Positions 6,998 to 25,166 of a DNA stretch of 61,623 nucleotides are shown here, one piece after another. Both the position numbers and the translations under genes were made by a program. This DNA is from an uncultured Pirellulales bacterium (GTDB taxonomy: Bacteria; Planctomycetota; Phycisphaerae; Sedimentisphaerales; Anaerobacaceae). Positions within the stretch are counted from its first letter, which is position 1. Each line of letters begins with the position of its first letter. Under the pieces are notes generated by a model that had not been told where the DNA came from, made no database searches, and saw nothing but the letters and a program-made list of their open reading frames with translations. The DNA lies in NCBI GenBank assembly GCA_964405375.1, contig CAYONQ010000001.1, positions 1-61,623 on the forward strand, in the 5' to 3' direction.

Positions 6998-8224
6998 ATG
7001 GCGAGAGGATTTGATAAACATATTTTGAAGAACAGGATGGTTGTTTTGGGTGAGCCGATGGAGGGGGTTGGGTCGGGGGCGTTCGATTTTATGCTGCCGG
7101 GCGGGGCAGCGCGACTTCCAGAGGGCTGCTGCGGGGCGGCTTCCGTCATATCCGACTGGATATTCAGAGGAGCGGGCGATAAAGACAGCAGGGAATTGGG
7201 GGATGCACTCGACGGGTTGGGGCTACACCGTGCCAGTTCGGTGGGCAGCAGTCATATAACTATCGGAGCGGCGCTGGAGGCTGGCAACTTAACCGAGGCG
7301 ATAGAGTTGTACGCTGATATTATACTGCGGGCGAGCTTGAAAGAAGAACAGTTCGAATTGGCCAGGCAATTAGCAATCGATGAGGTGAAGGCCCTCGACG
7401 ATAACCCGAGACAAAAGGTTATGTTAAAGCTGCGAGAGCGGTTTTATCCGAGCCCTCTGGGTCGCAGCAGCTTAGGGGAAATTGATGAACTAAAGACGCT
7501 GACCGCAGAAAAAACGAGGCAAATCATAGAAGATAATTTTAATCTTTCACAAACAATCTTTTCAGTTGCGGGCAAATATGACTTCGATGCGATTGTAAAA
7601 CAGATGGAAAATTTACTCGAAACGGGCCGGCAGAAGGCCCTCATGCCGGTTACGCTCGGTCCCAGAGCAGACAAATATACACATATTCATAATGAAGGTG
7701 CACAGGTGCATATCGGGTTGATGACCGAGACGGTCAAGCCGACCGATGCGGACTATTACAATGCGAGGGTGGCGGTATCGGTTCTTTCAGGCGGGATGAG
7801 TGCGAGATTATTTACAGAAGTTCGTGAGAAGCGAGGGCTGTGCTATGCAGTCGGTGCGCGGTATCACGGCTTGAAAGAGGCGGCCGGTATAGCGTGCTAT
7901 GCCGGCACGACGCCGGAAAAGGCGCAGGAAACGCTCGATGTGATAACGGCTGAGTTCGGCCGGCTCGCCGAAGGCGTCAGCAAAAAGGAAATTGAGCGGG
8001 CGAAAGTCGGGCTTAAAAGTGCGCTCATTCTGCAAAGCGAATCGTCCAGCAGCAGGGCCAGCGCTATCGGAAACGATTACTATATATTAGGCAGGGTCCG
8101 AAGCTTAAATGAAATCAAGGATAAAATCGAGGAAACAAGCGTGGATTCCATATTAGGTTTTTTGCGGAATAATAAGTTCGAGGACTTTACGGTGGTAACA
8201 ATCGGGCCAAAGTACCTAAAGTGA
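6998..8224 (+). CDS. M16 family (pitrilysin/insulinase-like) peptidase, non-catalytic subunit type (no HxxEH motif)
   Basis: The M16 C-terminal region LFTEVREKRGLCYAVGA is present. The position of the HxxEH motif reads SVISDWIFRGAG. The gene is paired with the catalytic M16 gene downstream. Confidence 0.8.
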   Translation: MARGFDKHILKNRMVVLGEPMEGVGSGAFDFMLPGGAARLPEGCCGAASVISDWIFRGAGDKDSRELGDALDGLGLHRASSVGSSHITIGAALEAGNLTEAIELYADIILRASLKEEQFELARQLAIDEVKALDDNPRQKVMLKLRERFYPSPLGRSSLGEIDELKTLTAEKTRQIIEDNFNLSQTIFSVAGKYDFDAIVKQMENLLETGRQKALMPVTLGPRADKYTHIHNEGAQVHIGLMTETVKPTDADYYNARVAVSVLSGGMSARLFTEVREKRGLCYAVGARYHGLKEAAGIACYAGTTPEKAQETLDVITAEFGRLAEGVSKKEIERAKVGLKSALILQSESSSSRASAIGNDYYILGRVRSLNEIKDKIEETSVDSILGFLRNNKFEDFTVVTIGPKYLK

Positions 8225-8327
8225 GCTAAAGTGCCTAAAGTGAGCTAAAGTGCCTAAAGTGAGCTAAAGTGAAAAAATTATCCATAACTTTAGGCATTTT
8301 AGGCACTCCAAACTTTAGGCACTTAAA
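8211..8327 (+). repeat. Intercistronic element: tandem gtgNNctaaa units followed by inverted ctttaggcac units (long imperfect hairpin)
   Basis: At 8221-8273 the sequence is gtgagctaaa gtgcctaaa x2.5. Inverted copies are actttaggca (8287-8296), ttttaggcac (8297-8306) and actttaggcac (8312-8322). The element overlaps the upstream stop codon and ends 10 nt before ATG 8337. Confidence 0.85.
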
Positions 8328-8336
8328 GAGCAGAGT

Positions 8337-9551
8337 ATGAAATTTGAGAAGAAGAAATTGGCAAATGGGTTGGTTATTACCGGCGAGGTGAATAACCGCG
8401 CCAAATCGGCGGCGGTGGGTTTTTTTGTTAAAACCGGCTCACGTGACGAGAGTAAGCAAATAAACGGCGTGTCGCATTTTTTGGAACATATGCTGTTCAA
8501 AGGCACCGAAAAACTAAATGCGTTTGAAGTTAATGAGGCGTTCGACAGGACAGGGGCACAATTTAACGCCTTTACCAGCGAGGAAAATACCGTCTTTTAT
8601 GCGGCGGTTTTGCCGGAATATTTAGCGGAGGTTACGGGATTGTGGATAGAGCTGATGAGGCCGGCGCTGCGAGATGAAGACTTCGATATCGAGAAAGACG
8701 TAATCAAAGAAGAGATTGCGATGTATAAGGATATGCCGAGCTTTGACGTTATGGAAAGGTGCAGGAGCTTGCACTTCGACAGCCATCCCTGCGGCAACAG
8801 TGTCTTAGGCAGCGAGGAAAACATAAATAATTTAACGGCTGAACAGATGCGGGGCTATTTTACCAGCCGATATGCGCCGAATAATATGGTATTAGCGGTT
8901 GCAGGCGCTTTTGAATGGGAGCAAATATGCTCGATTATCGAGGGTGGCTGTGGCAAGTGGCAAACCCAGAGTGTCGCAAGGCCGCTGGAAGAGGCAGCAG
9001 GTAGTAAAAAGAAAAAGCGTGTCGAAAAGCCAAGTCTGGCTCGCGAGCATATATGCCTGATGAGCCCTGCTGTGAGCGCCCAAGACAAGCGAAGATTCAC
9101 CGCTTCACTTCTGGGTGTTATTGTCGGTGACAGCGTAGGGTCAAGGTTCTTCTGGGAATTAGTTGACAAGGCGTTGGCGGAAACGGCAACGATGCAATTC
9201 GGGGCTATGGACGGCACGGGGGTATTTTGCAGCTATATCCGCTGCAGCGGTGAAAACGTTCCCAAAGTTCTCGAAACGATAAGGGATATTTTTAGTAATC
9301 TTGCCAAAGATGGTATAACCAATGACGAATTGAAAAAGGCAAAGAACAAGGTATTAAGTGCACTGGTGATAAAGAACGAGCTTCCTATGGGTCGGCTTAT
9401 TGACCTGGGCTTTAACTGGATATACTTAGAACGGTACTGTACCATTGAAGACGACATCAGCGCAATTAAGGCAGTATCCGTCAATGATGTTCATTCGCTG
9501 ATAAAGCAGTTCAGGCCGGGCGATTTCACGCAATTTTCGATAGGGCCTTAA
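8337..9551 (+). CDS. M16 family zinc peptidase, catalytic subunit
   Basis: The HxxEH zinc motif is present in GVSHFLEHMLFKGT, and the downstream E lies in NAFTSEENTVFY. Confidence 0.88.
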   Translation: MKFEKKKLANGLVITGEVNNRAKSAAVGFFVKTGSRDESKQINGVSHFLEHMLFKGTEKLNAFEVNEAFDRTGAQFNAFTSEENTVFYAAVLPEYLAEVTGLWIELMRPALRDEDFDIEKDVIKEEIAMYKDMPSFDVMERCRSLHFDSHPCGNSVLGSEENINNLTAEQMRGYFTSRYAPNNMVLAVAGAFEWEQICSIIEGGCGKWQTQSVARPLEEAAGSKKKKRVEKPSLAREHICLMSPAVSAQDKRRFTASLLGVIVGDSVGSRFFWELVDKALAETATMQFGAMDGTGVFCSYIRCSGENVPKVLETIRDIFSNLAKDGITNDELKKAKNKVLSALVIKNELPMGRLIDLGFNWIYLERYCTIEDDISAIKAVSVNDVHSLIKQFRPGDFTQFSIGP

Positions 9552-12996: not shown

Positions 12997-13090
12997 TAAA
13001 CTCAAACTGACCGATGGCCAGTTTGAAAATGTAAAAATCAAAGTGCAAAACGCAAAATTGCGGAATGTATTGTCAAAAATAGAGTTACAT

Positions 13091-13119
13091 TTAACCCGCC
13101 CCTCGGAGGGGCGGGTTAA
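13091..13119 (+). terminator. Perfect 12-bp GC-rich hairpin (ttaacccgcccc / ggggcgggttaa) between the kinase and the phosphatase
   Basis: The stem arms are 13091-13102 and 13108-13119. No clear T-tract follows, so it may be an attenuating or processing hairpin rather than a full terminator. Confidence 0.5.
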
Positions 13120-13173
13120 ACATTTGCTACAAATCGGTTAGCTTGAGTAATAAAGGAAAGCGAAAAGTCATAA

Positions 13174-13956
13174 ATGATGAAAGACGCCGGCGGTAACCTA
13201 AAAGGACACTTTCCATTTTGCTGGGGTGCAGTTAGTGATACAGGCAAGGTGAGGAAGGAAAACGAGGATACGTTTCTGGTCGAGCCGGAATTGGGTCTGT
13301 TTCTGGTTTCAGACGGTATGGGGGGTGAGCGTGGAGGGGCGATTGCATCGAATATTGTGGCTGAAGACCTGCCCGTGATGATTGAGACCAGATTAGACAA
13401 ACTCAAATCACACAGCCCCCGGGCGATAAGAGCGCTTTTCAAAAAGACCATTATCGAACAAAGCAGACAAGTGCAGATGGAAGGGACAAGTGAGAGCGGC
13501 TACAAAGGGATGGGAGCAACGGTCGTTATGACACTGTTAAAAGACGGGCGGGCATACATCGCAAATCTGGGCGACAGCAGGATGTGTCGTTTTCGCAAAG
13601 GTAAGCTCGCGCAGCTTACGAAGGACCACTCGGTCGTATCCGAGCTTCTGCACGAAGGCAAGATTAGGCCGGAGGAAGCGGAAGGCCACGCCGCTGCGGG
13701 CCAAATCACGCACTACGTCGGTATGGAAGAAAAGGTCATCCCTTACGTACGGACATTTACTCTCAAAGAAAAAGACCGGCTGCTGCTGTGTACCGATGGG
13801 CTAACAGATATGGTAGATGACGCAGCCATTGCTGATATATTAGCAGGTGAGACAGAACCACAGGCGGCATCTGAAGCGCTTGTTGATGCGGCCAATGCTG
13901 CCGGCGGCTATGACAATGTTACGGCTATGGTTATCGATTGGCTTGGTCGTTCATAA
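13174..13956 (+). CDS. PP2C-family Ser/Thr protein phosphatase (Stp1-like)
   Basis: Motifs are EDTFLV, VSDGMGGERGG, LCTDGLTD and GGYDNVTAMVI. Confidence 0.9.
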   Translation: MMKDAGGNLKGHFPFCWGAVSDTGKVRKENEDTFLVEPELGLFLVSDGMGGERGGAIASNIVAEDLPVMIETRLDKLKSHSPRAIRALFKKTIIEQSRQVQMEGTSESGYKGMGATVVMTLLKDGRAYIANLGDSRMCRFRKGKLAQLTKDHSVVSELLHEGKIRPEEAEGHAAAGQITHYVGMEEKVIPYVRTFTLKEKDRLLLCTDGLTDMVDDAAIADILAGETEPQAASEALVDAANAAGGYDNVTAMVIDWLGRS

Positions 13957-14034
13957 TAACAGCCCAAAAAGCTGCCTCGGGAATTACCTCACCCCATAGA
14001 AATGTTTTCTCACCTACAAAGATTACCGGCAATT

Positions 14035-14043
14035 TGTTATAAT
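14035..14043 (+). promoter_or_regulatory. Possible extended -10 promoter element (TGtTATAAT) upstream of the radical SAM operon
   Basis: tgttataat lies at 14035-14043, the same 9-mer as in the folC promoter. No good -35 is present. Confidence 0.35.
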
Positions 14044-14114
14044 TGCAGGTGGAATAACACAACAGGGTACGAACATCTGTCTGGATTGCCTTTTCGCCGG
14101 ATGGGCCATAAAAG

Positions 14115-15098
14115 GTGAGGGTTAAGTTGAAAGTTCAGTGCGAATTATGTCCGAAAAGGTGTGTAATTAAACCGGGCCAAAGCGGTGAGTGCCGGGTGAG
14201 AATCAACATCGACGGGGTGCTGCGAACGGTGGTTTATGGATACCCGTGCTCAATCCATATCGACCCTGTGGAAAAAAAGCCACTTTTTCACTTCCTGCCG
14301 AGCAGCGGAATTCTTTCACTTGCTACTGTCGGGTGTAATCTTCACTGCAGGAACTGCCAGAACTGGGAGATATCGCAGGCCAATCCGGAAGACAGCCAGG
14401 CGGCATTCTGCCCGCCTGAAAGACTCGTGGCATTAGCCAAGTACTACAACTGCCCCTCGGTGGCGTATACCTATACCGACCCGATTGTCTATTATGAATA
14501 TACCTACGACACGGCGAAGCTGGCCCGGGATAAAGGGATACGCAATGTGCTTGTAACAGCCGGCTATATCAACACCGAGCCGTGGAAACGACTGCTGGAA
14601 TACGTGGACGCAGCGAACATTGATTTGAAAGGAATTACCGATGATTTTTACCGGCAGGTGTGCTTTGGAACATTAAAGCCGGTGCAGCAGGCCCTGATAG
14701 AAGCTGCGGCCAGCGGAATACTGCTTGAGGTTACGAACCTGATTATCCCGACGTTAAACGACAAACCCGAGGAGATACGGCAACTCGCCCGCTGGGTCAA
14801 GATGAATCTCGGCAGCGATATACCGCTGCACTTTTCGAGATTCTTTCCGCGTTACAAGATGCGGCATCTGCCGCAAACTTCGTCGAAGACATTAGATATG
14901 GCCCGTGAGATTGCGGTCAGCGAAGGGCTGCACTACGTTTACATAGGAAATATTCGAAGCAAAACCGGGCAGAACACGTATTGTCCGGGCTGCAAGGCGC
15001 TTCTCATTGAGCGAAGCGGCTATACTATTCTGCAGAACCGGCTCAAAGATGGGTTTTGTCCGGATTGCGGTAGAGAGATATACGGGGTCTGGAAATGA
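14115..15098 (+). CDS. AmmeMemoRadiSam system radical SAM enzyme (PflA-like activase family)
   Basis: The CX3CX2C radical SAM cluster is in GCNLHCRNCQNWEIS. The N-terminal CELCPKRCVIKPGQSGECRVR and C-terminal CPGC...CPDCG Cys pairs are typical of this family. It is immediately followed by Memo and AMMECR1 domains. Confidence 0.85.
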   Translation: MRVKLKVQCELCPKRCVIKPGQSGECRVRINIDGVLRTVVYGYPCSIHIDPVEKKPLFHFLPSSGILSLATVGCNLHCRNCQNWEISQANPEDSQAAFCPPERLVALAKYYNCPSVAYTYTDPIVYYEYTYDTAKLARDKGIRNVLVTAGYINTEPWKRLLEYVDAANIDLKGITDDFYRQVCFGTLKPVQQALIEAAASGILLEVTNLIIPTLNDKPEEIRQLARWVKMNLGSDIPLHFSRFFPRYKMRHLPQTSSKTLDMAREIAVSEGLHYVYIGNIRSKTGQNTYCPGCKALLIERSGYTILQNRLKDGFCPDCGREIYGVWK

Positions 15099-15277
15099 CA
15101 CGCAGAAAATTTATTGAGAAATTGATAAAGGCGGGGTCGGTAATTATTGTGGGCGGCTGGCATCTGACGAAAAAGGCCTCGCCGCGGAGATTTGTGCGGG
15201 CCCTTCGAATTAAAAAATATCCCGGCTCTCTAAAGCCCCTGCGTAATATCCATAAACAAGGCAAGTGGAGCGGCTGA
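15095..15277 (+). CDS. 60-aa basic mini-protein with a twin-arginine-like N-terminus (MTRRKFIEKLIKAGSVIIVGG)
   Basis: The ATG overlaps the rSAM stop (ATGA at 15095-15098), and its stop (15275-15277) lies 1 nt before the next ATG (15279). It fills the gap exactly. Codon usage looks genic. Confidence 0.55.
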   Translation: MTRRKFIEKLIKAGSVIIVGGWHLTKKASPRRFVRALRIKKYPGSLKPLRNIHKQGKWSG

Positions 15278-15278
15278 T

Positions 15279-16883
15279 ATGAACAAGCGAACCAAGAAAA
15301 TTACCCTGAGAAAATCCATTCTGGGTTTTGTGATTTTATTTCTGGTCATTCTCGCTGTTGTCTTCTGGGACGTGCGTATCCCGGAACCCATGGTCCCGGT
15401 GGAGGAGGGCCCAGCGCCAAAAAAAGCAGAGCCGGTAAAGGTGGCGAAGGCCGTTCTGCACTCGCCGCTTGCCGGCAAATGGTATCCCGCCGATGGACAG
15501 GCACTTAGCAGACAGATTGAGGGGTTTTTTCAAAAAGCGGATGTCGAGCCGAGAGCGGATGTAATTGCGTTGATTCTGCCGCACGCGGGGTATCAGTTCT
15601 CCGGCCAGACGGCGGTCTGCGGGCTGGCGACCACCGATAAAGAATATAAACGCATCGTCATCATCGGCCCAAGTCACTATGTGCCTATGGAAGATATGCT
15701 GAGCGTGCCGAGGGTAACACATTACGAAACGCCGTTAGGAGAGATACCTCTGGATGTGGAGTTTATAGAGAAGCTCCTGAAACACCCGGTATTTCAGAAC
15801 TCGCCGCAGACACACGAGTACGAGCACAGCGTTCAGATAGAGCTGCCGCTGCTACAATACCGGCAAAAGGATTTTAAGCTCGTGCCGATTGTGGCCGGGG
15901 CCTGCTCATCAGAAACAATTGAGAAGGCCGCCGCCGTTTTGAAAGGTCTGGTTGACGATGGGACAGTTGTAATCGCAAGCTCGGATTTTGTGCACTACGG
16001 CCGCAACTATGGTTACGTGCCGTTTACGGAAAATATACCTGAACAGATAAAGAAACTCGATATGGGGGCGTACGAACACATTGCCAGGTTAGACATTGGG
16101 GGCTTTCTGGAATATAAGCAGAGAACCGGCGCAACTATATGCGGCTATATTCCGCTTGCGATATTGCTTTCGATGTTAGACAAATCGGCCGAGGCGAAGC
16201 TGATAAAATACACAACCTCCGGCGAGCTGACGGGGGATTTCAGCAATTCGGTGAGCTACCTTTCGGTGTCCTTTTCAGGGAGGTGGGGAAACGTGGCGGG
16301 AATCGAGCCGCAGACGACTAACCCCGGATTGACCGAAGAAGATAAGGAGCAACTCCTGAATTTAGCGAGGCAATCTCTGGTTTACTTCCTGGAGAACCGC
16401 CGCGTCCCGCAGCTATCAGAACTAAACGTTACGGCCAACGAGGCGATGAAATCTCCACGTGCGGTGTTTGTAACGCTCAAGAAGAATTCTCATCTGAGGG
16501 GTTGTATAGGTGATATTTTTCCACAACGGCCTTTATGCAGGTCGGTAGCTATCAATGCGATTAACGCTGGTGTTAATGACAGGCGTTTTCTGCCGGTAAC
16601 AAAACAAGAGTGTAACGATATTACAATCGAGATATCCGCACTGACGGCACCGCAGCCCATCGGGTCGGCGGATGAGATAAGAATCGGCATAGACGGTGTC
16701 GTGTTAAATAAGGACGGCCGGTCGGCTGTGTTTCTGCCCCAAGTTGCGCCCGAGCAGGGCTGGGACGTTAATCAAATGCTCACACACCTGTCGCTGAAGG
16801 CGGGTTTGAGCGGCGATGCCTGGAAGGAAGGTGCGAGCTTTCTGGTGTTCCAGGCGGTTATTTTTGGTGAAGAAGAAAGATGA
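15279..16883 (+). CDS. Fusion of AmmeMemoRadiSam system protein B (Memo-like) and protein A (AMMECR1-like), with an N-terminal transmembrane anchor
   Basis: The N-terminus KKITLRKSILGFVILFLVILAVVFW is a predicted TM helix. Memo motifs are LPHAGYQFSG and SSDFVHYG. The AMMECR1 motif LRGCIGDIFPQ and SAVFLPQV lie in the C-terminal roughly 190 aa. Confidence 0.85.
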   Translation: MNKRTKKITLRKSILGFVILFLVILAVVFWDVRIPEPMVPVEEGPAPKKAEPVKVAKAVLHSPLAGKWYPADGQALSRQIEGFFQKADVEPRADVIALILPHAGYQFSGQTAVCGLATTDKEYKRIVIIGPSHYVPMEDMLSVPRVTHYETPLGEIPLDVEFIEKLLKHPVFQNSPQTHEYEHSVQIELPLLQYRQKDFKLVPIVAGACSSETIEKAAAVLKGLVDDGTVVIASSDFVHYGRNYGYVPFTENIPEQIKKLDMGAYEHIARLDIGGFLEYKQRTGATICGYIPLAILLSMLDKSAEAKLIKYTTSGELTGDFSNSVSYLSVSFSGRWGNVAGIEPQTTNPGLTEEDKEQLLNLARQSLVYFLENRRVPQLSELNVTANEAMKSPRAVFVTLKKNSHLRGCIGDIFPQRPLCRSVAINAINAGVNDRRFLPVTKQECNDITIEISALTAPQPIGSADEIRIGIDGVVLNKDGRSAVFLPQVAPEQGWDVNQMLTHLSLKAGLSGDAWKEGASFLVFQAVIFGEEER

Positions 16884-19800
16884 GATTTGCCCGCCCCGTT
16901 AGAAGTAAGTTGCAAGGAGAGGATACTGCCGCTGCCGTGCGGATTTCTAACGGGGCCCGCCGGTTTCTGATATTCAGTTATGGTTTGTTTACTATTGCCG
17001 CCCAGGCGCTTCTGTTTCGCGAGTTTATCACCACCTTCGAGGGCAACGATATAAGCGTTGGGATATTCTTCGGCTCGTGGTTTTTGTGGGTTGGTTTGGG
17101 GGCGATGCTGGTTTACAAAGCAGAGGCGGTGGCTAAGAAGCTGGTTCGCAACATGGAATTTCTGTTTCTGGCCTATCTGCCGGCTTTTATATTAGAGTTA
17201 ATACTGATTATCCAGGCCCGTGAGCTTGCAGGCATCGAGCCGTATGCACTGTTGAGCGTACGGGCCATTCTGCTTTTATCAATAGTGGTTAGCGCACCGG
17301 TCAGTGTCATTACGGGGATGCTGTTTCCCACCGCCTGCCGATGGGTCCAGCAGGAGAGGGAACTGCCTGTTTCGTATGTGTATATCACCGAGGCGGCGGG
17401 AGGCTTCACCGGCGGACTCGGTGTAACCGTTCTTCTGGGATTTGGCGTAAGTTCGGCAACGGTTTTTCTTATACTTGCCTTTGTCGTCTGTCTATCGGTA
17501 TCTGTCATTCAATTTGCCAAGGCGAGAGAGCGGCGCTCGGACGGTTTACCGTCTCGACTTTCTATCGTTCGATTGTCCGTATATTTGCTGCCTCTTTTTG
17601 TGGTGCTTTGCTTAGCCGGCGGGGCTGATAGGCCGTTGATGCGTTATGTGCGAGTTGTAAAATGGACAAAGCTGCTTCCTAAAGACGCTCTGGTTGGGTC
17701 ATTCCAGACAGCCCAGGCCGAGTATCTCTACGGGGTCTATCACGGTCAATGGATAGCCGTTCGCGAAGGCAGTGTTACCGAATCGCTGCCCGATGAAGAA
17801 ACCGCCGGTCGAATAGCCGCTACGGCTCTGTGCCAGAATCACGACGCTAAAAGAATCCTGGTGGTGGGTTCGGGATTGGGGCTGTGCGGCGAATTTCTGC
17901 GCCTGAGACAGATTGAGCAGGTGACCTGGGCACACTGCGACAGTGAATACGTCCAGAAGGTCAACAGATTCATACCGGCGGAACTTAAAATCAACGATGA
18001 GCGGTTATCTTATCTTGCCGGTGATGTTCGCTCTCTGCTGGGCCGCCGCCCTGCAAAAGACAGCGAAAGAAAACCCTATGACATAGTAATCATCAATCTG
18101 CCCGATGCGACCAGCTCGGTCCTTAACCGTTACTTCACGCTTGAATTTTATCAGCAGGTCAAAGAACGCTTAAGTCCTGACGGCGTGCTGGGAGTTCGTA
18201 TAGCAGGCGGTGAAAACATTATGGGCACCGAGCTAATCAATCTCGGCGCCTCTACAAAGCTGACGCTGGAGAAGGTCTTCTCGCAGCTTGTTTTAACGCC
18301 CGGCGAGGATACCTGGTTCATCGCATCCGATTCAGAAAATCTTACCGGCGACCCCGGCACTTTGCGGGACCGCTTTGCAACGATAGAAGGCGGAAGCGAC
18401 ATTCTTGCCGCCGAGGCGCTGCTTAGTATCTATCTGCCGGGGCGTGCGGCCACAGCCGTTGAGAACTATTCTGCTGCAGATTTACCGCAGGCACTTCTGA
18501 TTAACCGCGATTCGAGACCGCTGACGCATCTATACAGCTTATTACTCGCAGCGAAACAATCAGGGGCGCCGATTACAAAACTCGTTAAACATCTGGCTTT
18601 GGCGGGGCCGTCGGCCTTTCTTATCCCCGTTCTGATTTTTGTGGTCTTGCGGGTTATCTACATATTAAAAACAGCTCAGCGAGACATAAGGTCCAGCTTC
18701 GACAGTGCATTTCTGGTTTTCTCAGCGGGGTGGGTGGCAATCGGCGTTGTGATTTCTCTGATGTTTTTGTATCAGACCCGTTTCGGCTCGCTGTACCTGC
18801 ACATCGGGGTTATTTCATCTTTGTTTATGGCGGGCCTGACCGCCGGCGCAGTTTTAACTTCGTATCTCGTGAAGCGCAGGGGTAAGATGCTGCTGTTTAA
18901 AGTAATCCTGCTACATATACTAATCCTAATCGTAATCGCTTTTTGGCCGGCTGAACTGTGGACACATCCGGCGTTTGCGATTGCATTTGTTCTCTGCGGG
19001 CTGTGTTCGGGCAGTTACTTTCCGCTGGCTGCCGGCCAGCTTGCCGATTCTGCGTTTGAGCCGGGCCAGGCCGGCAGCAAGCTCGAAACCGCCGACCACC
19101 TCGGTGCATCAGCAGGAGGTGTGCTGACGAGCATTGCGCTTGTGCCTGTGCTGGGGACGAGGGCGACCTTATTCGTATTTGTTCTTCTCATTCTGGCCAA
19201 CGTGCCGGCTGCGGCACTAAAGATATACAGGCCAAAGCTGGTTTTTTCTTCGGATGCAGGTGCTTTTAGCTTACGTCGGCTCGGCTATATCTTATTCGGC
19301 GTGGGTCTGGCCGTTATGCTGTGCTCGAACCTGCTTATCTATGCCGGCAGAGGGCTGAGGCCGTCACTGTCGCAGTATGCGGCCCAGGCACTGGCCGGCG
19401 AATCGCACATCGAGCAGGCATCAGCGGTTGTCGGTGACAATGCCAAAAAGGTCAGCTATTTCAAGGTCTATGAGCCCGCTGATACGGCAGCGGAAAAGGC
19501 AACCAAAGAAATAGATACCAAACCGCCGGAGCCGGGAGCCCAAAAACTAACCGGATACATCTTCAGCTCCGAGGAGCTGGCGGACGAGGTTCGCGGATTC
19601 GGCGGTAAGATGAATCTTGCCATTTATGTGGATACTGCCGGCAGACTGATTAACTTCCACATAATACGGTCAAATGAAACGCCTTCATACCTTGAGATGC
19701 TCGGCCAATGGCGTGGGCTTCTCAATGGTCGTGAGCTTTTCCGGTCCCGGCCGTTCGCCGACGTTCACGCTGTAACCGGTGCCACCGTAAGCTCTATGGC

Positions 19801-20890
19801 CGTTCTTTCGGCACTGGAATCATCCGGCAATAGATTCGCAATGCAGATTCTCGGCAGGACTCTTGAAGCCGGGCCAAAAGAACAGCCCCATCTGGCCAAT
19901 TACCTGCCGGATACGCAAGGGGCATATCTGATTAGCGTCTTCGCACTTACACTTATTGTAATCTACAGAGGCGGATTCCGGAGCAGACTGGCGGTACTTG
20001 CGTTTAATCTTGTTGTCGGCGGTATTATCTTAAACGCCCAGTATTCGAGCGAACAGATAGCGACCGTACTGTCTTTGCAAACCCCCGCTATGGGATTTTC
20101 GGGGGCATTTCTGCTGGCCGTAGGAATACCAATACTCGTTATATTCTTCGGCAACATCTATTGCGGCTACATCTGTCCATTCGGAGCTGCGCAGGAGCTG
20201 CTCGGCTACGTCGTTGGCGGAAGATTCAAACAGGCGATATCAACAGAAGATATGCGGAGGGCAAGATTCGTCAAATATGCGGTTCTCTTTGTTTTGATAA
20301 TCGTGTTCTTTATTTCAAGAAATCGCACGACTCTGGCAACGGACCCGCTCATAAGGATTTTCAATCTTCGATTTTCAATCTCCAATTTTCAATCAGCAAT
20401 ACTGCTGATAGCAGCGGCAGCTTTGATTGGCTCGATTTTCTATACTCGCTTCTGGTGCCGATATTTGTGTCCCGCAGGGGCCTTTCTGTCACTGTTTAAC
20501 AAGGTGGTGATACTAAAGCGGTACCTGCCGATAAAGAGATTTGGCAGATGTGAATTCGGCCTTACCGGGCAAGACCAGATGGACTGCTTATACTGCGATA
20601 GATGCCGTTACGAGGTAAAAACAACTAAAGAACCCCTGCTGCAGCCCCGTGCGCCGGTGAAGCTGATGAGCCGGTACTTTATGGTAGGTGTACTTATAAT
20701 AGCAGTAGTTGCGTCGACGGTTTCTGTAAGCAGATTTTTACAGGTTACTGCCGGTGGCCTTGAGCGGACCGCCGTTTCGGTGGCTTCCGGCGGTCAGCCG
20801 CGAGACGTCGATTTACAGCGTATCCGCGAGATGATTCGGCAGGGGAAACTGGCCGACAAAGAAGCTGAGTTCTACGAAAAGACTGATTAG
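16880..20890 (+). CDS. 1336-aa polytopic membrane megaprotein: fused MFS-like/spermidine-synthase-like module, FMN-binding domain, and NosR/NapH-like CX3CP plus 4Fe-4S module
   Basis: There are about 7 TM helices, then a SpeE-like fold (ILVVGSGLGLCGE, YDIVIINLPDA, LSPDGVLGV), then about 8 more TM helices. An FMN_bind-like segment ends in VHAVTGATVSSMAV. TM helices carry CGYICPFGAAQE and WCRYLCPAGAFLS. A Cys cluster reads CEFG...CLYCDRCRY. The ATG overlaps the upstream stop (ATGA). Confidence 0.8.
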   Translation: MRFARPVRSKLQGEDTAAAVRISNGARRFLIFSYGLFTIAAQALLFREFITTFEGNDISVGIFFGSWFLWVGLGAMLVYKAEAVAKKLVRNMEFLFLAYLPAFILELILIIQARELAGIEPYALLSVRAILLLSIVVSAPVSVITGMLFPTACRWVQQERELPVSYVYITEAAGGFTGGLGVTVLLGFGVSSATVFLILAFVVCLSVSVIQFAKARERRSDGLPSRLSIVRLSVYLLPLFVVLCLAGGADRPLMRYVRVVKWTKLLPKDALVGSFQTAQAEYLYGVYHGQWIAVREGSVTESLPDEETAGRIAATALCQNHDAKRILVVGSGLGLCGEFLRLRQIEQVTWAHCDSEYVQKVNRFIPAELKINDERLSYLAGDVRSLLGRRPAKDSERKPYDIVIINLPDATSSVLNRYFTLEFYQQVKERLSPDGVLGVRIAGGENIMGTELINLGASTKLTLEKVFSQLVLTPGEDTWFIASDSENLTGDPGTLRDRFATIEGGSDILAAEALLSIYLPGRAATAVENYSAADLPQALLINRDSRPLTHLYSLLLAAKQSGAPITKLVKHLALAGPSAFLIPVLIFVVLRVIYILKTAQRDIRSSFDSAFLVFSAGWVAIGVVISLMFLYQTRFGSLYLHIGVISSLFMAGLTAGAVLTSYLVKRRGKMLLFKVILLHILILIVIAFWPAELWTHPAFAIAFVLCGLCSGSYFPLAAGQLADSAFEPGQAGSKLETADHLGASAGGVLTSIALVPVLGTRATLFVFVLLILANVPAAALKIYRPKLVFSSDAGAFSLRRLGYILFGVGLAVMLCSNLLIYAGRGLRPSLSQYAAQALAGESHIEQASAVVGDNAKKVSYFKVYEPADTAAEKATKEIDTKPPEPGAQKLTGYIFSSEELADEVRGFGGKMNLAIYVDTAGRLINFHIIRSNETPSYLEMLGQWRGLLNGRELFRSRPFADVHAVTGATVSSMAVLSALESSGNRFAMQILGRTLEAGPKEQPHLANYLPDTQGAYLISVFALTLIVIYRGGFRSRLAVLAFNLVVGGIILNAQYSSEQIATVLSLQTPAMGFSGAFLLAVGIPILVIFFGNIYCGYICPFGAAQELLGYVVGGRFKQAISTEDMRRARFVKYAVLFVLIIVFFISRNRTTLATDPLIRIFNLRFSISNFQSAILLIAAAALIGSIFYTRFWCRYLCPAGAFLSLFNKVVILKRYLPIKRFGRCEFGLTGQDQMDCLYCDRCRYEVKTTKEPLLQPRAPVKLMSRYFMVGVLIIAVVASTVSVSRFLQVTAGGLERTAVSVASGGQPRDVDLQRIREMIRQGKLADKEAEFYEKTD
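20356..20397 (+). repeat. In-frame 3 x 14-bp tandem repeat inside the megaprotein CDS (gattttcaatcttc gattttcaatctcc aattttcaatcagc)
   Basis: This is direct reading of the sequence. It encodes IFNLRFSISNFQS between predicted TM segments. Confidence 0.85.
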
Positions 20891-20907
20891 TTTGTAGATA
20901 TGATAAA

Positions 20908-20936
20908 AGCGTGGCGGTCGTTATGACCGCCACGCT
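20908..20936. terminator. Bidirectional hairpin terminator between convergent genes (12-bp perfect stem agcgtggcggtc / gaccgccacgct)
   Basis: The arms are 20908-20919 and 20925-20936 with a 5-nt loop. It lies between the + gene ending at 20890 and the - gene ending at 20972. Confidence 0.7.
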
Positions 20937-20971
20937 CGTAATGCCTCTTCAAAGCCAGATTAAATCGGTGA

Positions 20972-23833
20972 TTAATCTTCATCCAATATCACAACAAGGG
21001 CCCTGTTAGGCAGGCCAAGTTTGTAATTGGCATCGGGGTCGATGGTGATAATCACCTGCTCTGCATTGTCAGGGTCACCATCGTCGATAGGCGTAACGTC
21101 AATGGTCGCAGTAGAATCACCGCCGGCAATCGTTACCGAGCCGCTCAGCGTTGAGTAATCAGTGCCGGCTGTTGCATCTCCACTTACGCTATAATCCACG
21201 AGCAGCGATGATGCGGTATCACCTGTGCGATATACTTTAAATTCGCCGGCGACTTCGTTCACTTCGTAAGCACGGGAATTAGAGGCGGCGACGAATACAA
21301 TAGTAGTGTCATCTCCATTGGGGTCGGTATTATTAAGATACTCCTCTATGTTGGTATAGCCATCGTTGTCGGCGTCCTGGCTGTGGTCCAAGATGTTGGG
21401 GTCGAGAATGCTGCTGTATTGCTCTTCCCAGTAGTTCGGCATACCGTCGCTGTCGTTGTCAGCCAGCGCTGTAAGCGAGTAAAGTGTTGGCCAGCTGCCG
21501 ACCTCATCCTCATCGTCAATGATGGTTCCTCTTCCAATTACAACGTCGCCTATAATACGCACATCAACGGAGTCTACGGCAGGCAAACAGGCACCGGCGT
21601 CGGCAATGACACGTGCATAGGCCGTGTTCGGGTCATCGGTAGCAACTGGGACAACATCATATGGCTCCGACTGTTTGTAAGCCGCTACCAGTGGTTCTGT
21701 AAAGTAGGCGTAGTCAAATCTCCAGAGAACCCACGGGTCTGCCGGATTGTACTCATCGAGCGAATTATCCTCAATATATGATTTGGCGCCAATGCACTGT
21801 TCCTTGTAAATGTGGATGGTGTTGTCGCCGGGTCTGTCTTTGTAATAGTTTCCGACGAAATTGCTTAATGTAATAGTGGCATCATCAGAGTTGTAACCCG
21901 GGGTGGAGTCGAGCCAGCTGTAGATTACATTGTTTCGCCAATCAAAGATCCATCCTATCTTGTCGGCGCCATTGGTATTTTCCGGTCGCGGAGACCGCGT
22001 CTTATGATGTGCATAAAGGTTGTGGTGATAGGTAACTTCTTTGCCATAGTCACCGACGATTAAGGAAGCATAACCGTGGTATACGTCGCCATGAGTCGAA
22101 TGGTTCAGACTCTCGCTAATTATACACCACTGGACGGTAACGTCATCGGAGTGAGTAACTGAAAATGTTTCATCCACCGACCAGCTCGCCGAACAGTGGT
22201 CGAACATAATCCTATTGGCGTGGTAGGCCGACATACTATCCGGCTCAAAAGCCACGTTGTCGCCGGGGCGAGCTCGTAGATAGCGGACAATCACATCATC
22301 AACATAAGGAACTCTAAAACCATAATCCTTAAGGGTTATTCCATCACCCGGAGCGGTCTGACCTGCAATGGTGCAGTAAGAATTCTCAACATTCAAGGTA
22401 TCCTTCAGCGTTATGGTGCCTGAAACGTTAAATACAACGGTTCTGGGCCCCGTGGCATCTGTTGCGGCACGCAAACTGCCGGCAACGGGGGCCTCCATAG
22501 AGTTGTAGTCCTGAAGATTTGTGACAAAAAGTACCGTCCCTCCGCGGCCGCCCTTGGCGCCCTTGCCGGGACCTTCAGCAGTCGGGAATGCCGGGGTGTC
22601 TGTATTAAATGTCCATATCGGGCCTTTGCAGGGAATATTGGCGTCATCGAGCTCGTCTATGCGCCAGTAATAAACAGTGTCCCGCTCAAGTCCGCCGGGG
22701 TCAAAGCTGTTGACATCAAAGTTGCCCTTATAGACGTTGGGGTCGCCCGGCCCGGTCGCGACCGGCCAGGAGTTATTGGCATCACTAACATCGTTCAAAT
22801 TGGTGCCGAAGTACACATCGTGCGAGTTTGCATCATCCGCAGGCGCCCATTTAAGAACAACATTGCTGTCCATGCAAAATGCTTCATCAGCAGGATAGGG
22901 ATTGCTGGCCCATCCGCCAGTACCGGCAATATCCGCTATATCGGCCGCCGACAGTGCGCTATTGTAGATGCGCACATCGTCCATTTTGCCGTCAAACCAG
23001 GCAACCATATTCTTTTTAACGCCTATTCTTACGGGCTCATCATTAAGTATGCCACCGGCGGTAGTTTGTGCGGTGATTCCCGCCGGAAAACCGTCTATAT
23101 AGAAGTTAACGGTCTTCAACGTGGTCAGGGTAACAGCTACATGTTCCCAGTCTCCGGCACTCACAGGAGCAGCTGATTCATAATACACAAAATTTGCACC
23201 TGTACTGGTTTGATGTACCAACCTCAACTTACCGCCTGCGATCGTCATGAATACATAATTTCCCGGATAGTTATCTGCCGCCGTACCGCTGGGCTGTTTG
23301 CCCACAATAGTAGCGGCGGCGGCGGTGCTATCCAGCTTCACCCAGGCGGCAATAGTAATGTTGCTGTCGACGTCGAGACTGTCATCGGTATCCGGAACAC
23401 TAACGTAATCACCGACGCCATCGAAATCAAGTGCGTAGATTCCCTCTGCGCCGGCGACCCAGTTGGGGTCACCGTTGAGCGTGCCGTCGTTGTCGTTGCC
23501 GCTCGAATCGTAGGCGATACTGCCGGAACCCTCTTCAAACCTCCACCGGCCGACAAGACTTGGCCGGGTTAACCAGCGTTTTGCCCATAAAGTATAATCA
23601 TCAAAATCAACGTTGTTATTATCCTCATCAAAGTTGGCCCCGTTGCACCAGTTGTTCGTCGCATTGCAATCGTTCAGCCACTCGGCAGCGAATGCGTCGA
23701 GGTCCTTCCAGTCGATGGAATCGTCCTTAACCAAGTCATAATCGACCGCTGAAACCAGACCCGACACACCAAGTATCACCGCCAGAAGCACCGGCACAAG
23801 GTATGAAAAAAGGTAAGTATTATTATTCTTCAT
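20972..23833 (-). CDS. Secreted multidomain protein: dockerin-like N-terminus, LamG (concanavalin A-like) domain, pectate-lyase-like beta-helix, thrombospondin type-3-like Ca-binding repeats, Calx-beta domain
   Basis: A signal anchor is present. Domain evidence is LamG (GRWRFEEGSGSIAYDSSGNDNDGTL), the PL1-like start TAEGPGKGAKGGRGGTVLFVTNLQD, DNDSDGMPNYWE and DADNDGYTNIEEY repeats, and Calx-beta (VDYSVSGDATAGTDYSTLSGSVTI). Confidence 0.75.
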   Translation of the reverse strand: MKNNNTYLFSYLVPVLLAVILGVSGLVSAVDYDLVKDDSIDWKDLDAFAAEWLNDCNATNNWCNGANFDEDNNNVDFDDYTLWAKRWLTRPSLVGRWRFEEGSGSIAYDSSGNDNDGTLNGDPNWVAGAEGIYALDFDGVGDYVSVPDTDDSLDVDSNITIAAWVKLDSTAAAATIVGKQPSGTAADNYPGNYVFMTIAGGKLRLVHQTSTGANFVYYESAAPVSAGDWEHVAVTLTTLKTVNFYIDGFPAGITAQTTAGGILNDEPVRIGVKKNMVAWFDGKMDDVRIYNSALSAADIADIAGTGGWASNPYPADEAFCMDSNVVLKWAPADDANSHDVYFGTNLNDVSDANNSWPVATGPGDPNVYKGNFDVNSFDPGGLERDTVYYWRIDELDDANIPCKGPIWTFNTDTPAFPTAEGPGKGAKGGRGGTVLFVTNLQDYNSMEAPVAGSLRAATDATGPRTVVFNVSGTITLKDTLNVENSYCTIAGQTAPGDGITLKDYGFRVPYVDDVIVRYLRARPGDNVAFEPDSMSAYHANRIMFDHCSASWSVDETFSVTHSDDVTVQWCIISESLNHSTHGDVYHGYASLIVGDYGKEVTYHHNLYAHHKTRSPRPENTNGADKIGWIFDWRNNVIYSWLDSTPGYNSDDATITLSNFVGNYYKDRPGDNTIHIYKEQCIGAKSYIEDNSLDEYNPADPWVLWRFDYAYFTEPLVAAYKQSEPYDVVPVATDDPNTAYARVIADAGACLPAVDSVDVRIIGDVVIGRGTIIDDEDEVGSWPTLYSLTALADNDSDGMPNYWEEQYSSILDPNILDHSQDADNDGYTNIEEYLNNTDPNGDDTTIVFVAASNSRAYEVNEVAGEFKVYRTGDTASSLLVDYSVSGDATAGTDYSTLSGSVTIAGGDSTATIDVTPIDDGDPDNAEQVIITIDPDANYKLGLPNRALVVILDED

Positions 23834-24107: not shown

Positions 24108-25166
24108 TTAAACGGTGATTTCGATGATTTTAACCCTGCTCAAATCCGCTGTTCCCAGCCCTAATTTCTCGGCATAGCTAAGCGTCGGAGCAATCGTTTG
24201 CCGGTCAAAACCATCATCATTATCATCCAGGATTTGCGCACAATAAGCGTCTGTAGCAACCATATCGCCGGATATGATAATTTTGTTGATATCCTTTATG
24301 ACCGAGCCAGGTTTAAAACTGGGGCCTCGGACAGTTAAAATCTTTCGGGCATCGACTATGGTCAGTTCGGGGCGCATTGCATCGGCGAATTCAGCGACGG
24401 TTTTCATAAAAAAGTCTTTGCCCTGCTCGCCGAATTTTTTGAGCTGATTGTGGGAATCCATCCGCTGGGAACAGCAAACGGCACCATAGAAGTTTTTCAA
24501 GGCACAGGTCATAAACGCATTGCCGTGGGTCTTAAGCATCGGCTGATTGATTATGACCGATGCAGCCAGCAGATGCGGATTGACCTTAATATCAGGGTTT
24601 TTCTGCCACCGGTCGCAATAGACAGAGACATACTGCTTTTCATCAGCAGGGTGGGTGCATATTACCTCAACACCCGCCGATTCGGCGATTTCAAAGACCT
24701 TATTTACCTTAAAGACGTATGCCGGGTCGTTATAGCGGTTCAGGACATAGGGGTCGGAAGAGTCGCAAATGGTTACTTTGCCGGCACCGCTTTCTTTCAG
24801 ATGTCGAGCAATTGAAACCAAAAAATGCGGGTCGGAACCGGTTGGGTAAACTCGATGTGAGCCGTAATTGGGCTTGATGAACGCACTATCACCGGCAGCT
24901 ACAATTTTTCCGAGTCCGCCGATGGCATCCAGCCCCTTTGCCAGCATTTTTTCGGTGTCTTTGCCTTCAACAGCAACCAATAAGGGTTTGCCGTCCTCGA
25001 CAAAGAGATTTGATTTTCCCAGCCGGGGCTGTAATTTCTTCTCTTCGCCAGCCCGGATTGAAGACGGCGCAGCTAAATAGGCCGAGATGGCGCTTACAGT
25101 TTTCAGGAATTGCCGGCGCGAAAACCGCAAACGCCACCACCTACACTTATCGCTGGTGCCGTTCAT
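24108..25166 (-). CDS. DUF362 domain protein with a twin-arginine signal
   Basis: SRRQFLKTVSAISAYLAAP is a Tat-type signal. The core AFIKPNYGS...KVTICDSS is DUF362-like. Confidence 0.7.
   Translation of the reverse strand: MNGTSDKCRWWRLRFSRRQFLKTVSAISAYLAAPSSIRAGEEKKLQPRLGKSNLFVEDGKPLLVAVEGKDTEKMLAKGLDAIGGLGKIVAAGDSAFIKPNYGSHRVYPTGSDPHFLVSIARHLKESGAGKVTICDSSDPYVLNRYNDPAYVFKVNKVFEIAESAGVEVICTHPADEKQYVSVYCDRWQKNPDIKVNPHLLAASVIINQPMLKTHGNAFMTCALKNFYGAVCCSQRMDSHNQLKKFGEQGKDFFMKTVAEFADAMRPELTIVDARKILTVRGPSFKPGSVIKDINKIIISGDMVATDAYCAQILDDNDDGFDRQTIAPTLSYAEKLGLGTADLSRVKIIEITV

Follow-up and report, generated by a model that had tools for sequence, protein, structure and literature searches.

A membrane protein joining spermidine-synthase-like and NosR-type modules as a candidate fourth component of an AmmeMemoRadiSam-type system

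Introduction

Memo and AMMECR1 are proteins with disease links whose conservation extends over bacteria, archaea and humans; in the bacterial triad called the AmmeMemoRadiSam system (TIGR04335, TIGR04336 and TIGR04337) they accompany a radical S-adenosylmethionine (SAM) enzyme, AmrS. Burroughs et al. are reported to have analysed, in 2019, Memo-AMMECR1-radical SAM gene contexts and to have connected the contexts of Memo with modification of nucleotide bases and of aliphatic isoprenoids. Here, we analysed a stretch of 61,623 nucleotides (nt) of contig CAYONQ010000001.1 from an uncultured Pirellulales bacterium, called the window below, in which a single open reading frame (ORF) of 1336 amino acids (aa; positions 16880–20890, plus strand) follows the genes of such a system. 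It encodes a fusion of an MFS-like membrane bundle, a spermidine-synthase-like (SpdS-like) domain, an FMN_bind domain and a membrane module of the NosR/NapH type.

Both halves of this protein have described relatives. The exocytoplasmic location of the FMN domain and covalent binding of FMN to a conserved Thr were shown experimentally for PceC, and NosR is cited as having the same orientation; NosR and NapH bear two ferredoxin-type 4Fe-4S motifs and RdhC none (PMC5928378). NapH-like modules serve many oxidoreductases in a modular manner (Méheust et al. 2021, PMC8238504), and the survey of 'NapH-like flavinylated systems' in that paper, which also defines the flavinylation motif [S/T]GA[S/T], makes no mention of SpeE, Memo, AMMECR1 or radical SAM. 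A SpdS-like domain behind a membrane anchor of seven transmembrane (TM) helices is known from the fungal protein NHMT (AN4663), which methylates the N-terminal His of secreted lytic polysaccharide monooxygenases (LPMOs); residue I322 was used as an argument for NHMT being a SAM-dependent methyltransferase rather than a spermidine synthase (PMC10349129). Finally, cofactor-containing heterodimers, e.g., NiFe hydrogenases, are exported by the twin-arginine translocation (Tat) pathway in the 'hitchhiker' mode (cited in PMC10924467). In the literature on AmmeMemoRadiSam, membrane SpdS-like proteins and exported radical SAM enzymes we found no description of the architecture reported here, nor of any exported radical SAM enzyme. 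An earlier note on this DNA, made from its sequence alone, had likewise recognised no case of a NosR-type conduit linked to a SpeE-like fold, and no paper describing such a linkage was found.

Results and Discussion

The fusion gene is the fourth gene of an AmmeMemoRadiSam-type operon

The fusion gene is preceded on the same strand by three genes (all coordinates are those of the window, and residues of the fusion are numbered in the 1336-aa ORF). The first (14115–15098) encodes a leaderless AmrS of 327 aa, which scores 383.8 bits against TIGR04337 (cutoff 220) and contains CELCPKRC at aa 9–16 and the radical SAM motif CX3CX2C at aa 74–81. The second (15095–15277) is an ORF of 60 aa in which a Tat-like twin-arginine (RR) motif, MTRRKFI, precedes a short stretch of hydrophobic residues and a basic tail, the C-terminus being KWSG. 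The third (15279–16883) encodes a 534-aa Memo-AMMECR1 fusion (AmrB plus AmrA) matching Pfam Memo (204.9 bits) and AMMECR1 (163.2 bits) as well as TIGR04336 (231.7 bits, cutoff 26) and TIGR04335 (162.9 bits, cutoff 99), with the Memo-type motifs PHAG, GPSH, DFVH and CGY and the AMMECR1 motif LRGCIG. The AmrS gene and the 60-aa ORF overlap by ATGA, as do the stop of Memo-AMMECR1 and the start of the fusion gene, while a 1-nt gap (TGAnATG) separates the 60-aa ORF from Memo-AMMECR1. Such junctions imply translational coupling of the four genes, and the fusion is thus the fourth, translationally coupled gene of the operon. This context had gone unnoticed in the earlier note, as had the predicted outside location of the SpdS-like domain and its lack of the aminopropyltransferase residues (see below).

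The conservation of this order was assessed in 80 species-representative genomes that encode the fusion at 52–72% identity, a locus being informative when at least 2.9 kb of upstream sequence was available. AmrS, the small ORF, Memo-AMMECR1 and the fusion follow each other on one strand in all 64 informative loci (64/64), and the remaining species-level loci are interrupted by contig ends. The operon was also found in distant clades, namely in a metagenome-assembled genome (MAG) labelled Deltaproteobacteria (L084) and in another Planctomycetes MAG (L085), and it is kept in one genome (two assemblies, L002/L003) despite insertion of a mobile element between Memo-AMMECR1 and the fusion. The genes flanking the operon show no conservation across related loci. 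A small mobile or phage-like cassette (helix-turn-helix, Gp49-like and HNH/AP2 proteins, and small ORFs) occupies positions 7457–9740 of L002/L003. As for regulatory elements, an Rfam scan of positions 13000–21500 of the window gave no riboswitch, its sole match (ALIL, 17 bits, E 0.62) being due to chance; promoter matches showed no excess over shuffled sequence, and terminator-like matches (15 vs. a shuffle mean of 8) do not mark the ends of the operon.

The fusion is ancient, and both of its halves also occur as separate genes

Close homologues of the fusion, retrieved by a word-indexed search, comprise at least 120 full-length proteins of 63–88% identity from independent assemblies; they are labelled Sedimentisphaerales, Phycisphaerae or Planctomycetota and are named '4Fe-4S binding protein' by NCBI and 'spermidine synthase' by JGI. 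An exhaustive search of 50%-identity representatives with a query region spanning the junction of the two halves gave 900 representatives at the threshold of E≤1e-30. Among the best 150 of them, 115 have at least 1100 aa, and nearly all span the SpdS-like, TM bundle, FMN_bind and NapH-like parts, at identities down to 29%. Hundreds of independent assemblies, among them MAGs deposited at chromosome level, contain the ORF without interruption. The fusion gene is genuine and ancient, and its family is large and deep; the earlier description of it as an unusual megafusion holds in the sense of undescribed and fails in the sense of rare. One locus (L056, JAIVYN010000116.1), on a contig binned as 'Candidatus Aegiribacteria', encodes a fusion 66% identical to that of the window together with the full upstream operon; its placement may reflect mis-binning or horizontal transfer.

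A profile of distant members led to proteins of 700–835 aa that match the N-terminal half alone. Relatives of these unfused N-modules, which come from MAGs of KSB1, Acidobacteriia, Bacteroidota and Ignavibacteriales, are named 'fused MFS/spermidine synthase' by NCBI, in agreement with the resemblance pointed out in the earlier note for the N-terminal approximately 830 aa. Formal membership does not follow: for NF037959 (cutoff 40 bits) the N-module of the window gave no match at E<0.01, whereas the unfused protein P0310 scores 51.8 bits and that of L117 scores 33.3 bits, and the window protein is thus a divergent relative. The unfused relatives share with it the layout of seven TM helices, SpdS-like domain and seven TM helices and the signature YD..NLPDP.T..LNR.YT.EF; the window protein differs in an altered SAM-type signature (H352) and in the fused conduit. 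Unfused N-modules (L117, 7992–10127; P0310) also match PRK03612, the model of a membrane-bound 'polyamine aminopropyltransferase', over both the TM and SpeE parts (143–184 bits), which raises the question of whether annotated membrane SpeE proteins have their catalytic domain outside as well.

We scored the neighbours of the N-module within 3 kb at 80 metagenomic loci encoding an N-module-only protein, many of them on contigs that end early. An AmrS-type gene was found in 58 loci and Memo in 50; at least one of the two is present in 71 loci (89%), and 39 loci have both. Thus the N-terminal ~830 aa also exist as a stand-alone protein, which in several phyla is almost always encoded close to Memo-AMMECR1 and AmrS. 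Split versions, for which the earlier note had proposed a search, exist as well: L089 has an FMN_bind plus Fer4_5 gene of 409 aa whose start overlaps with the N-module gene, and in L154 and L170 a separate FMN_bind plus Fer4_5 gene lies nearby, that of L154 with two CxxCxxCxxxCP motifs. The C-terminal ~500 aa are therefore also found as a separate, adjacent gene. In another arrangement a gene for DsbD_2, which is another kind of carrier of reductant through the membrane, stands directly upstream of the N-module (L086, L144, L153, L160, L163). Together, the unfused, split and DsbD_2 forms indicate that a subclass of AmmeMemoRadiSam systems generally has the N-module as its fourth component and that the redox conduit is an interchangeable accessory, fused in the lineage of the window. 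In the DsbD_2 variant (L086, 5255–7995, and the other four loci) the CcdA-like DsbD_2 gene lies between AmrS and the MFS/SpdS-like gene, and L086 has a second radical SAM gene upstream.

The locus resembles the AmmeMemoRadiSam system in that all three components exceed their cut-offs and are adjacent, and in that AmrS resembles PflA-like activases. It is unlike that system in the fusion of Memo and AMMECR1 to each other and to an export anchor or signal, in the fourth, membrane component, and in AmrS itself, which mostly bears a Tat- or Sec-type leader in unfused systems and, in the clade of the window, is N-terminally truncated and accompanied by the small RR protein. We conclude, with a probability of about 0.6, that the fusion forms the membrane part of a system of the AmmeMemoRadiSam type and that the enzymes of this system work on the outer side of the cytoplasmic membrane.

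Predicted topology places the SpdS-like and FMN domains outside

Hydropathy and model helices give the layout of seven TM helices, the SpdS-like domain, eight TM helices, the FMN_bind domain, five TM helices, a four-cysteine motif (Cys4), one TM helix and a tail. TM1–6 (16961–17524) are read from hydropathy, model helices and positive-inside statistics as an MFS-like N-half with the N-terminus inside, and TM9–14 (18701–19228) from the topology and Pfam MFS_1 as the C-half. The two would form an MFS-like 6+6 core, a reading based on hydropathy and on a pseudo-symmetric motif: E171 of TM5 (in EAAGGFTGGL), membrane-embedded and invariant in the deep alignment (members at 26–49% identity), is mirrored by D739-H740 (in DHLGASAGGV), of which D739 is invariant too. 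Pfam MFS_1 (41.4 bits, gathering threshold 33.4) covers the C-half only (aa 591–746, profile positions 173–346), and the membrane part of the model is of low confidence.

Cytoplasmic loops of membrane proteins are enriched in positively charged residues (the positive-inside rule), and in MFS proteins both termini and the central loop are cytoplasmic. In the fusion, the density of Lys and Arg is mostly 0.14–0.27 in loops predicted inside and mostly 0.00–0.08 in those predicted outside, in the close and the deep alignment. Two helices additional to the core, TM7 (17558–17623) and TM8 (18602–18673), assigned from hydropathy, the model and loop charges, flank the SpdS-like domain (17642–18574). 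TM7 would lead out to this domain and TM8 back to the cytoplasmic side, exposing it on the outside, on the same side as the FMN_bind domain (19397–19879), to which TM15 (19277–19351; hydropathy, model and loop charges) is predicted to lead out. The CX3CP motifs and the Cys4 site would face the cytoplasm. The last helix, TM21 (20663–20734), is kept in 119/119 close and 81/86 long deep homologues and is predicted to lead out again; the C-terminal tail with its LS..EA.FY motif would lie outside because of TM parity.

Structural models were of limited help here. AlphaFold2, run on aa 1–1200 and aa 790–1336 with 33-sequence alignments, gave mean pLDDT values of 51.9 and 52.4, and the usable parts are the SpdS core and the FMN domain only, thus domain packing and sidedness cannot be read from the models. 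In a Foldseek search the confident cores match only spermidine synthases (TM-score to target of 0.55–0.68) and RnfG subunits.

The sidedness of the SpdS-like domain is where the best surviving alternative departs from our reading. If the topology were off by one helix on each side, the SpdS-like domain would be a cytoplasmic SAM-dependent methyltransferase in the central MFS loop, modifying the product of a cytoplasmic AmrS, and the FMN domain alone would face outward, serving exported Memo-AMMECR1. SAM is a cytoplasmic metabolite and the central loop of MFS proteins is cytoplasmic, the AmrS of the window is leaderless, and the AlphaFold2 models leave the sidedness unsettled, all of which would suit this arrangement. 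However, TM7 and TM8 are strongly hydrophobic (Kyte–Doolittle values of 2.3–2.6) and helical in the model, the loops flanking them obey the positive-inside rule in both alignments, an insertion on the cytoplasmic side needs no two extra helices, and the partner enzymes of unfused systems bear export signals. We consider this alternative unlikely, yet deserving of a place beside the preferred, outward topology.

Export signals, the small ORF and the C-terminal tail

The Memo-AMMECR1 protein of the window begins with MNKRTKKITLRKSILGFVILFLVILAVVFW, in which basic residues precede a TM helix; this N-terminus is read as a signal anchor. A hydrophobic N-terminus precedes Memo in 68/74 fused-clade proteins and in 31/46 unfused partners, many of the latter with a lipobox-like L-x-x-C. 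In unfused systems AmrS has an N-terminal extension, with a median of 79 aa before C..CP..C. Among 53 such proteins, 21 have RR and 14 have KR, each followed by a hydrophobic region (e.g., SRRRFLKYG, TRRELIKMG, DRRTFLKLA and SKREFLK), and six have an N-terminus that is hydrophobic only (Sec-like or anchor); Tat-type leaders, which would imply that a radical SAM enzyme is exported, occur in L093, L104, L117, L141 and about 35 other loci among L086–L170. Where AmrS is linked to DsbD_2, its signal peptide is of the classic Sec type with an AxA site, e.g., MRRIFSACVILLLITLFSQTSYA followed by GG. All four AmrS proteins tested are true members of TIGR04337 (340–384 bits), the extension lying outside the family model.

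The leader motif (S/T/D)(R/K)R.F(L/I)K with a hydrophobic region is present both in AmrS leaders and in the small ORF, and a Tat-signal or Rieske Tat-anchor model was the best match in three of the cases tested, below cutoff in each. With TIGR01409 (cutoff 16.7 bits) and PF10518 (cutoff 22.7 bits) the small ORF of the window gave no match, while those of L084 and L170 scored 15.9 and 18.4 bits, respectively; the AmrS leader of L093 scored 12.0 bits with TIGR01409 and 18.4 bits with PF10399 (Rieske Tat signal), all of these scores being sub-cutoff.

In the fused clade, 64/67 AmrS proteins are devoid of the extension (median 8 aa) and start at approximately position 10–11 of TIGR04337. Positions 1–6 of this model read 'EA.FY.' (register from L117), and the AmrS of the window, which begins at about position 11, lacks this N-terminal segment. 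EA.FY precedes the Cys motif in 37/51 AmrS proteins of unfused systems and in 0/70 of the fused clade. The motif reappears at the other end of the operon: LS..EA.(F/Y)Y stands after the last TM helix of the fusion in 113/119 close and 69/86 long deep proteins, and elsewhere in 0/77 tails of unfused N-modules and 1/1545 tails of other ORFs. In the window it is KLADKEAEFYEK (20846–20881), and the tail KLADKEAEFYEKTD may be compared with WKWSKEALFYEKTD of the L107 AmrS. Judged by this motif, the tail of the fusion carries the AmrS N-terminal segment which the AmrS of the window is missing. The idea that the last TM helix and the tail are a fossil Tat leader was rejected as unsupported, an RR-like motif preceding that helix in only 6/119 close and 16/86 deep proteins. 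A shorter class of fusions (representatives of at most 1240 aa: P0151, P0152, P0157, P0165, P0171, P0212, P0253, P0254 and P0269) stops just after Cys4, without the last TM helix and the EA.FY tail, and has the motif in 2/28 cases.

The small ORF is conserved in 64 species, with MTRR.F, a hydrophobic region, PR.F, YPG and the C-terminal KWSG. Its distant counterparts end in HAWAG (L084) and HDWAG (L085), and those at split-NapH loci contain KEARFY and KEAKYF in their tails (L154, L170). A motif scan detected none in unfused loci whose AmrS has its own leader; all systems with the small ORF have a leaderless AmrS and a NapH/FMN module. With AmrS leaders, a small-ORF profile reached at best 12.2 bits (shuffles 8.9) and aligned the RR region alone, so that homology is not demonstrated. 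Since this match is marginal, the link between the small ORF and the AmrS leader rests on position, complementary distribution and the KWS and KEA.FY motifs. The arrangement resembles Tat hitchhiking in that a signal-less Fe-S enzyme is encoded beside a small twin-arginine partner; it is unlike the known cases in that the partner has only ~60 aa, and hitchhiking itself is here a prediction.

A small, strongly conserved ORF translationally coupled to a PflA-like radical SAM gene could also be the precursor of a ribosomally synthesized and post-translationally modified peptide (RiPP) or peptide cofactor, comparable to PqqA, MftA or QhpC, the more so as its C-terminal W-[SA]-G is conserved in operons of the fused proteins. 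AmrS would then modify the C-terminal W-x-G, Tat would export the product, and Memo-AMMECR1, the SpdS-like domain and the flavin would finish it outside. However, the small ORF was detected at none (0) of the unfused loci having the same enzymes, the L154 and L170 tails end in LAG instead of W-x-G and carry the AmrS segment KEA.FY, and the presence of the ORF is exactly complementary to that of an AmrS leader. The KEA.FY tails and the complementary presence suggest a detached leader rather than a substrate, and we regard the precursor-peptide alternative as improbable.

The C-terminal half resembles NosR-type electron conduits

The motifs listed in the earlier note are all present, and their exact positions are aa 330–334 for GSGLG, aa 966–972 for TGATVSS, aa 1095–1100 (CGYICP) and aa 1193–1198 (CRYLCP) for the two CX3CP motifs, and aa 1224–1242 for CX11CX2CX2C. 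Pfam FMN_bind matches aa 906–980 (32.3 bits, gathering threshold 22), and this domain, of the RnfG/NqrC/NosR type according to Pfam, NCBIfam and Foldseek (matches to RnfG of Rnf complexes at E 1.5e-5), is predicted to be extracytoplasmic. T969 (19784–19786) is the predicted flavinylation site, because T966-G-A-T969 fits the [S/T]GA[S/T] motif; G967, A968 and T969 are each at least 90% conserved in the deep family alignment. The following TM16–20 (19913–20473) are read as a NapH/NosR/RdhC-type membrane module from two Fer4_5 matches (58.3 bits, gathering threshold 22), invariant Cys and Pro residues and the topology, with the CX3CP motifs (20162–20179 and 20456–20473) at predicted inner helix ends. 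CX11CX2CX2C (20549–20605), predicted to be cytoplasmic, has four invariant Cys and is probably a single [4Fe-4S] site. All eight Cys of the CX3CP motifs and Cys4 are invariant in the deep alignment, down to 26% identity.

Of the NosR-like elements claimed earlier for this half, the FMN_bind and both Fer4_5 assignments stand above their gathering thresholds, while the curated cut-offs for NosR, NapH and RnfG are not reached, and the modules are divergent relatives of these families. The fusion scores 51.4–59.8 bits with NosR NF046105 (cutoff 1000), over aa 1083–1212 only, and 39.4–41.2 bits with NapH TIGR02163 (cutoff 213), and is a member of neither; with RnfG TIGR01947 (cutoff 102) it scores 33.4–36.7 bits, a match at the level of fold only. 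It shares with NosR, NapH and RdhC (PceC) a predicted outside FMN_bind domain with the [S/T]GA[S/T] motif and, C-terminal to this domain, a membrane module that has predicted cytoplasmic Cys ligands and two CX3CP motifs, the latter invariant in the deep family. Modules of this kind are used as interchangeable links that bring electrons from the cytoplasm or from quinol to enzymes of the outer face. The FMN domain is separated from the cytoplasmic Cys region by five helices, in keeping with the arrangement of NosR-like proteins. It is unlike NosR and NapH in having one Cys4 motif instead of two ferredoxin-type motifs, and unlike all three in its extra C-terminal helix and tail, the 830-aa MFS/SpdS-like module, the scores far below curated cut-offs, and the context: no nos, nap or rdh genes were found among the 36 window ORFs or in related loci. 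By analogy with these proteins there is good support for the C-terminal module being an inside-to-outside electron conduit.

As NapH-like modules pair modularly with many oxidoreductases (PMC8238504), the fusion might be a generic respiratory accessory, a NosR/PceC-like donor for an unlinked periplasmic reductase whose position in the operon is mere synteny. We find this very unlikely, since the linkage is kept over at least 80 species, in clades down to 29% identity and through a mobile-element insertion (L002), the N-module alone is equally linked in other phyla, and no reductase gene recurs in the flanks.

The SpdS-like domain lacks the residues that define aminopropyltransferases

The SpdS-like domain has a class I methyltransferase fold according to Pfam, alignment with PDB sequences, Foldseek and residue frequencies; Pfam Spermine_synth matches aa 312–437 (34.5 bits, gathering threshold 22.9). 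In an alignment with Thermus thermophilus SpeE, GGGEG corresponds to GSGLG, so that L333 replaces an acidic residue, and the catalytic Asp of 'iiDLtDP' corresponds to N406. Among 339 family members (close clade, deep fused and unfused groups), position 333 is Leu in 99% of the close clade and hydrophobic or small family-wide, and its common residues do not include an acidic one. Asn occupies position 406 in 97%, 52% and 65% of the close, deep fused and unfused groups, respectively. Other site residues in the window protein are H352-C-D354, D382, D401 and N416-R417, of which D354, D401 and R417 are invariant in the deep alignment. The domain is without the acidic residues defining aminopropyltransferases; because L333 and N406 stand in their place, we conclude that it is not an aminopropyltransferase.

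As to the features of a class I methyltransferase, GSGLG is present, and in the predicted site H352 occupies the position of the aligned Glu, the ribose-binding acidic residue at the end of strand 2, with the invariant D354 two residues on. Unfused members keep the SAM-type signature, i.e., (G/S)GG(V/I)G, E352 in 94%, D354 and D382, and SAM binding is plausible for the family and uncertain for the window protein itself. A described parallel in layout is NHMT, in which seven TM helices likewise precede a seven-beta-strand SpdS-like domain and the acidic residue of GxG(D/E)G is hydrophobic (I322, compared with L333 here); the SpdS-like domain of METTL13 was also compared. NHMT acts on proteins passed through the secretory membrane. 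It differs in keeping the SAM-binding Glu, E340, where the window protein has His, and in having neither a second TM bundle nor a redox module. The likeness is one of layout, and the authors of NHMT found its 7-TM domain in fungi only (PMC10349129).

The JGI label 'spermidine synthase' would make the fusion a membrane-bound polyamine synthase or transporter. Although Pfam Spermine_synth and Foldseek matches to SpeE agree with the label, the residue selecting decarboxylated SAM is Leu and the catalytic Asp is Asn, the scores with SpeE equivalogs (34.9–55.3 bits) are far below the cut-offs of all these models (250–537), among them TIGR00417 (249.55), PRK00811 (260) and PRK03612 (472), and the domain is predicted to be extracytoplasmic. 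This alternative was rejected as highly improbable. That two genes were joined by mis-assembly or frameshift, a doubt voiced in the earlier note and favoured by nothing except the unusual length, is refuted by the same uninterrupted ORF in hundreds of independent assemblies and need not be considered further.

A working model of the system

It can be proposed, with good support from the sequence, that the outer face of the membrane is the site of Memo-AMMECR1 and of three parts of the fusion, namely its SpdS-like domain, its FMN domain and its tail. The NosR/NapH/RdhC-like module would take electrons from a cytoplasmic or membrane donor and pass them via Cys4 and the CX3CP motifs to FMN covalently bound to T969, to which the flavin would be attached by an ApbE encoded elsewhere, and FMN would hand the electrons to the exported partners. 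A small ligand of the enzymes on the outer face might be transported or held by the MFS-like core together with the SpdS-like pocket; this ligand would be SAM-like in unfused relatives and is uncertain in the fusion. The C-terminal tail might dock a partner, either AmrS or Memo-AMMECR1.

Two versions of this model receive about equal weight from us. In one, AmrS leaves the cytoplasm as a hitchhiker of the small RR protein and is docked by the tail next to the flavin, which would be its electron source. In the other, AmrS of NapH-containing systems stays cytoplasmic and Memo-AMMECR1 is the partner recruited by the tail; the SAM signature of the fused SpdS-like domain would then have decayed because external SAM was no longer needed. 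A broader and more tentative proposal is that of the first extracytoplasmic radical SAM system, with a dedicated supply of SAM and electrons. Under this proposal the leader of AmrS in NapH/FMN versions would be the separate RR protein of ~60 aa, acting by Tat hitchhiking; the MFS core and SpdS-like pocket would export or present SAM; the NapH/FMN conduit would give the low-potential electron for SAM cleavage; and LS..EA.FY of the tail would replace the missing AmrS segment, docking AmrS beside the flavin and Memo-AMMECR1. We give this proposal a substantial chance, though less than an even one.

Several points weigh against an outer-face system with the fusion as its membrane component. The reading is wholly computational. 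Because the models are poor in membrane regions (pLDDT 52), the sides were assigned by hydropathy and the positive-inside rule, helped by analogy, and the loop charges have exceptions, i.e., loops of 3–5 residues and the loop of aa 720–737, which is predicted inside yet acidic. The Tat models stay below their cut-offs (12–18 bits vs. 16.7–24), and the AmrS of the window, having no signal of its own, may be cytoplasmic. We know of no SAM pool in the periplasm. SAM binding by the window protein is doubtful, as 97% of its clade have His (H352) in place of the Glu that contacts the ribose of SAM, and deep fused clades show a degenerate glycine motif. None of the 36 window ORFs with 150 aa or more encodes ApbE, as the earlier note had already stated, and at 8/80 unfused loci none of the scored partners lies within 3 kb.

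The modules themselves are of known kinds; what appears to be undescribed is the link among them, namely the fourth membrane component, the exported form of the system and the fusion to a conduit. In several phyla the AmmeMemoRadiSam triad gains a membrane-embedded component, and the system of these lineages seems to be designed for work outside the cytoplasm, with reducing power brought across the membrane by interchangeable means, namely NapH/FMN modules (fused or separate), DsbD_2 or possibly a Tat-tagged DUF362 protein. The system is also a candidate client for one of the many uncharacterised 'NapH-like' flavinylated conduits. If a radical SAM enzyme were truly exported, the working assumption that such enzymes are confined to the cytoplasm would be overturned, and dedicated export of SAM would be implied.

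Other features of the window

A DUF362 protein with the Tat-like leader FSRRQFLK is encoded 3 kb downstream of the fusion (24108–25166, minus strand). DUF362 genes stand beside the system in 13/85 unfused loci, all of one clade (L134–L169) and with Tat-tagged paralogues, and in 0/82 loci of the fused clade. The copy in the window is therefore treated as coincidental; in the unfused clade, Tat-tagged DUF362 may be an alternative outer-face redox partner.

Paired genes of M16 (insulinase/PqqF-like) peptidases lie 5 kb upstream of the operon (6998–9551, plus strand), and such a pair is found directly downstream of the operon in L085 (12361–14601, minus strand). On the plus strand the window further encodes a 545-aa protein with an odd pairing of a FlgI (flagellar P-ring) region and HEAT repeats (1258–2895) and two proteins without a Pfam family, one of 748 aa (29742–31988) inside a sugar-nucleotide dehydrogenase, glycosyltransferase and TPR-PMT_2 cluster (28097–37382), and one of 308 aa (51901–52827). 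A 527-aa protein consisting nearly entirely of ankyrin repeats is encoded on the minus strand at 59804–61387.

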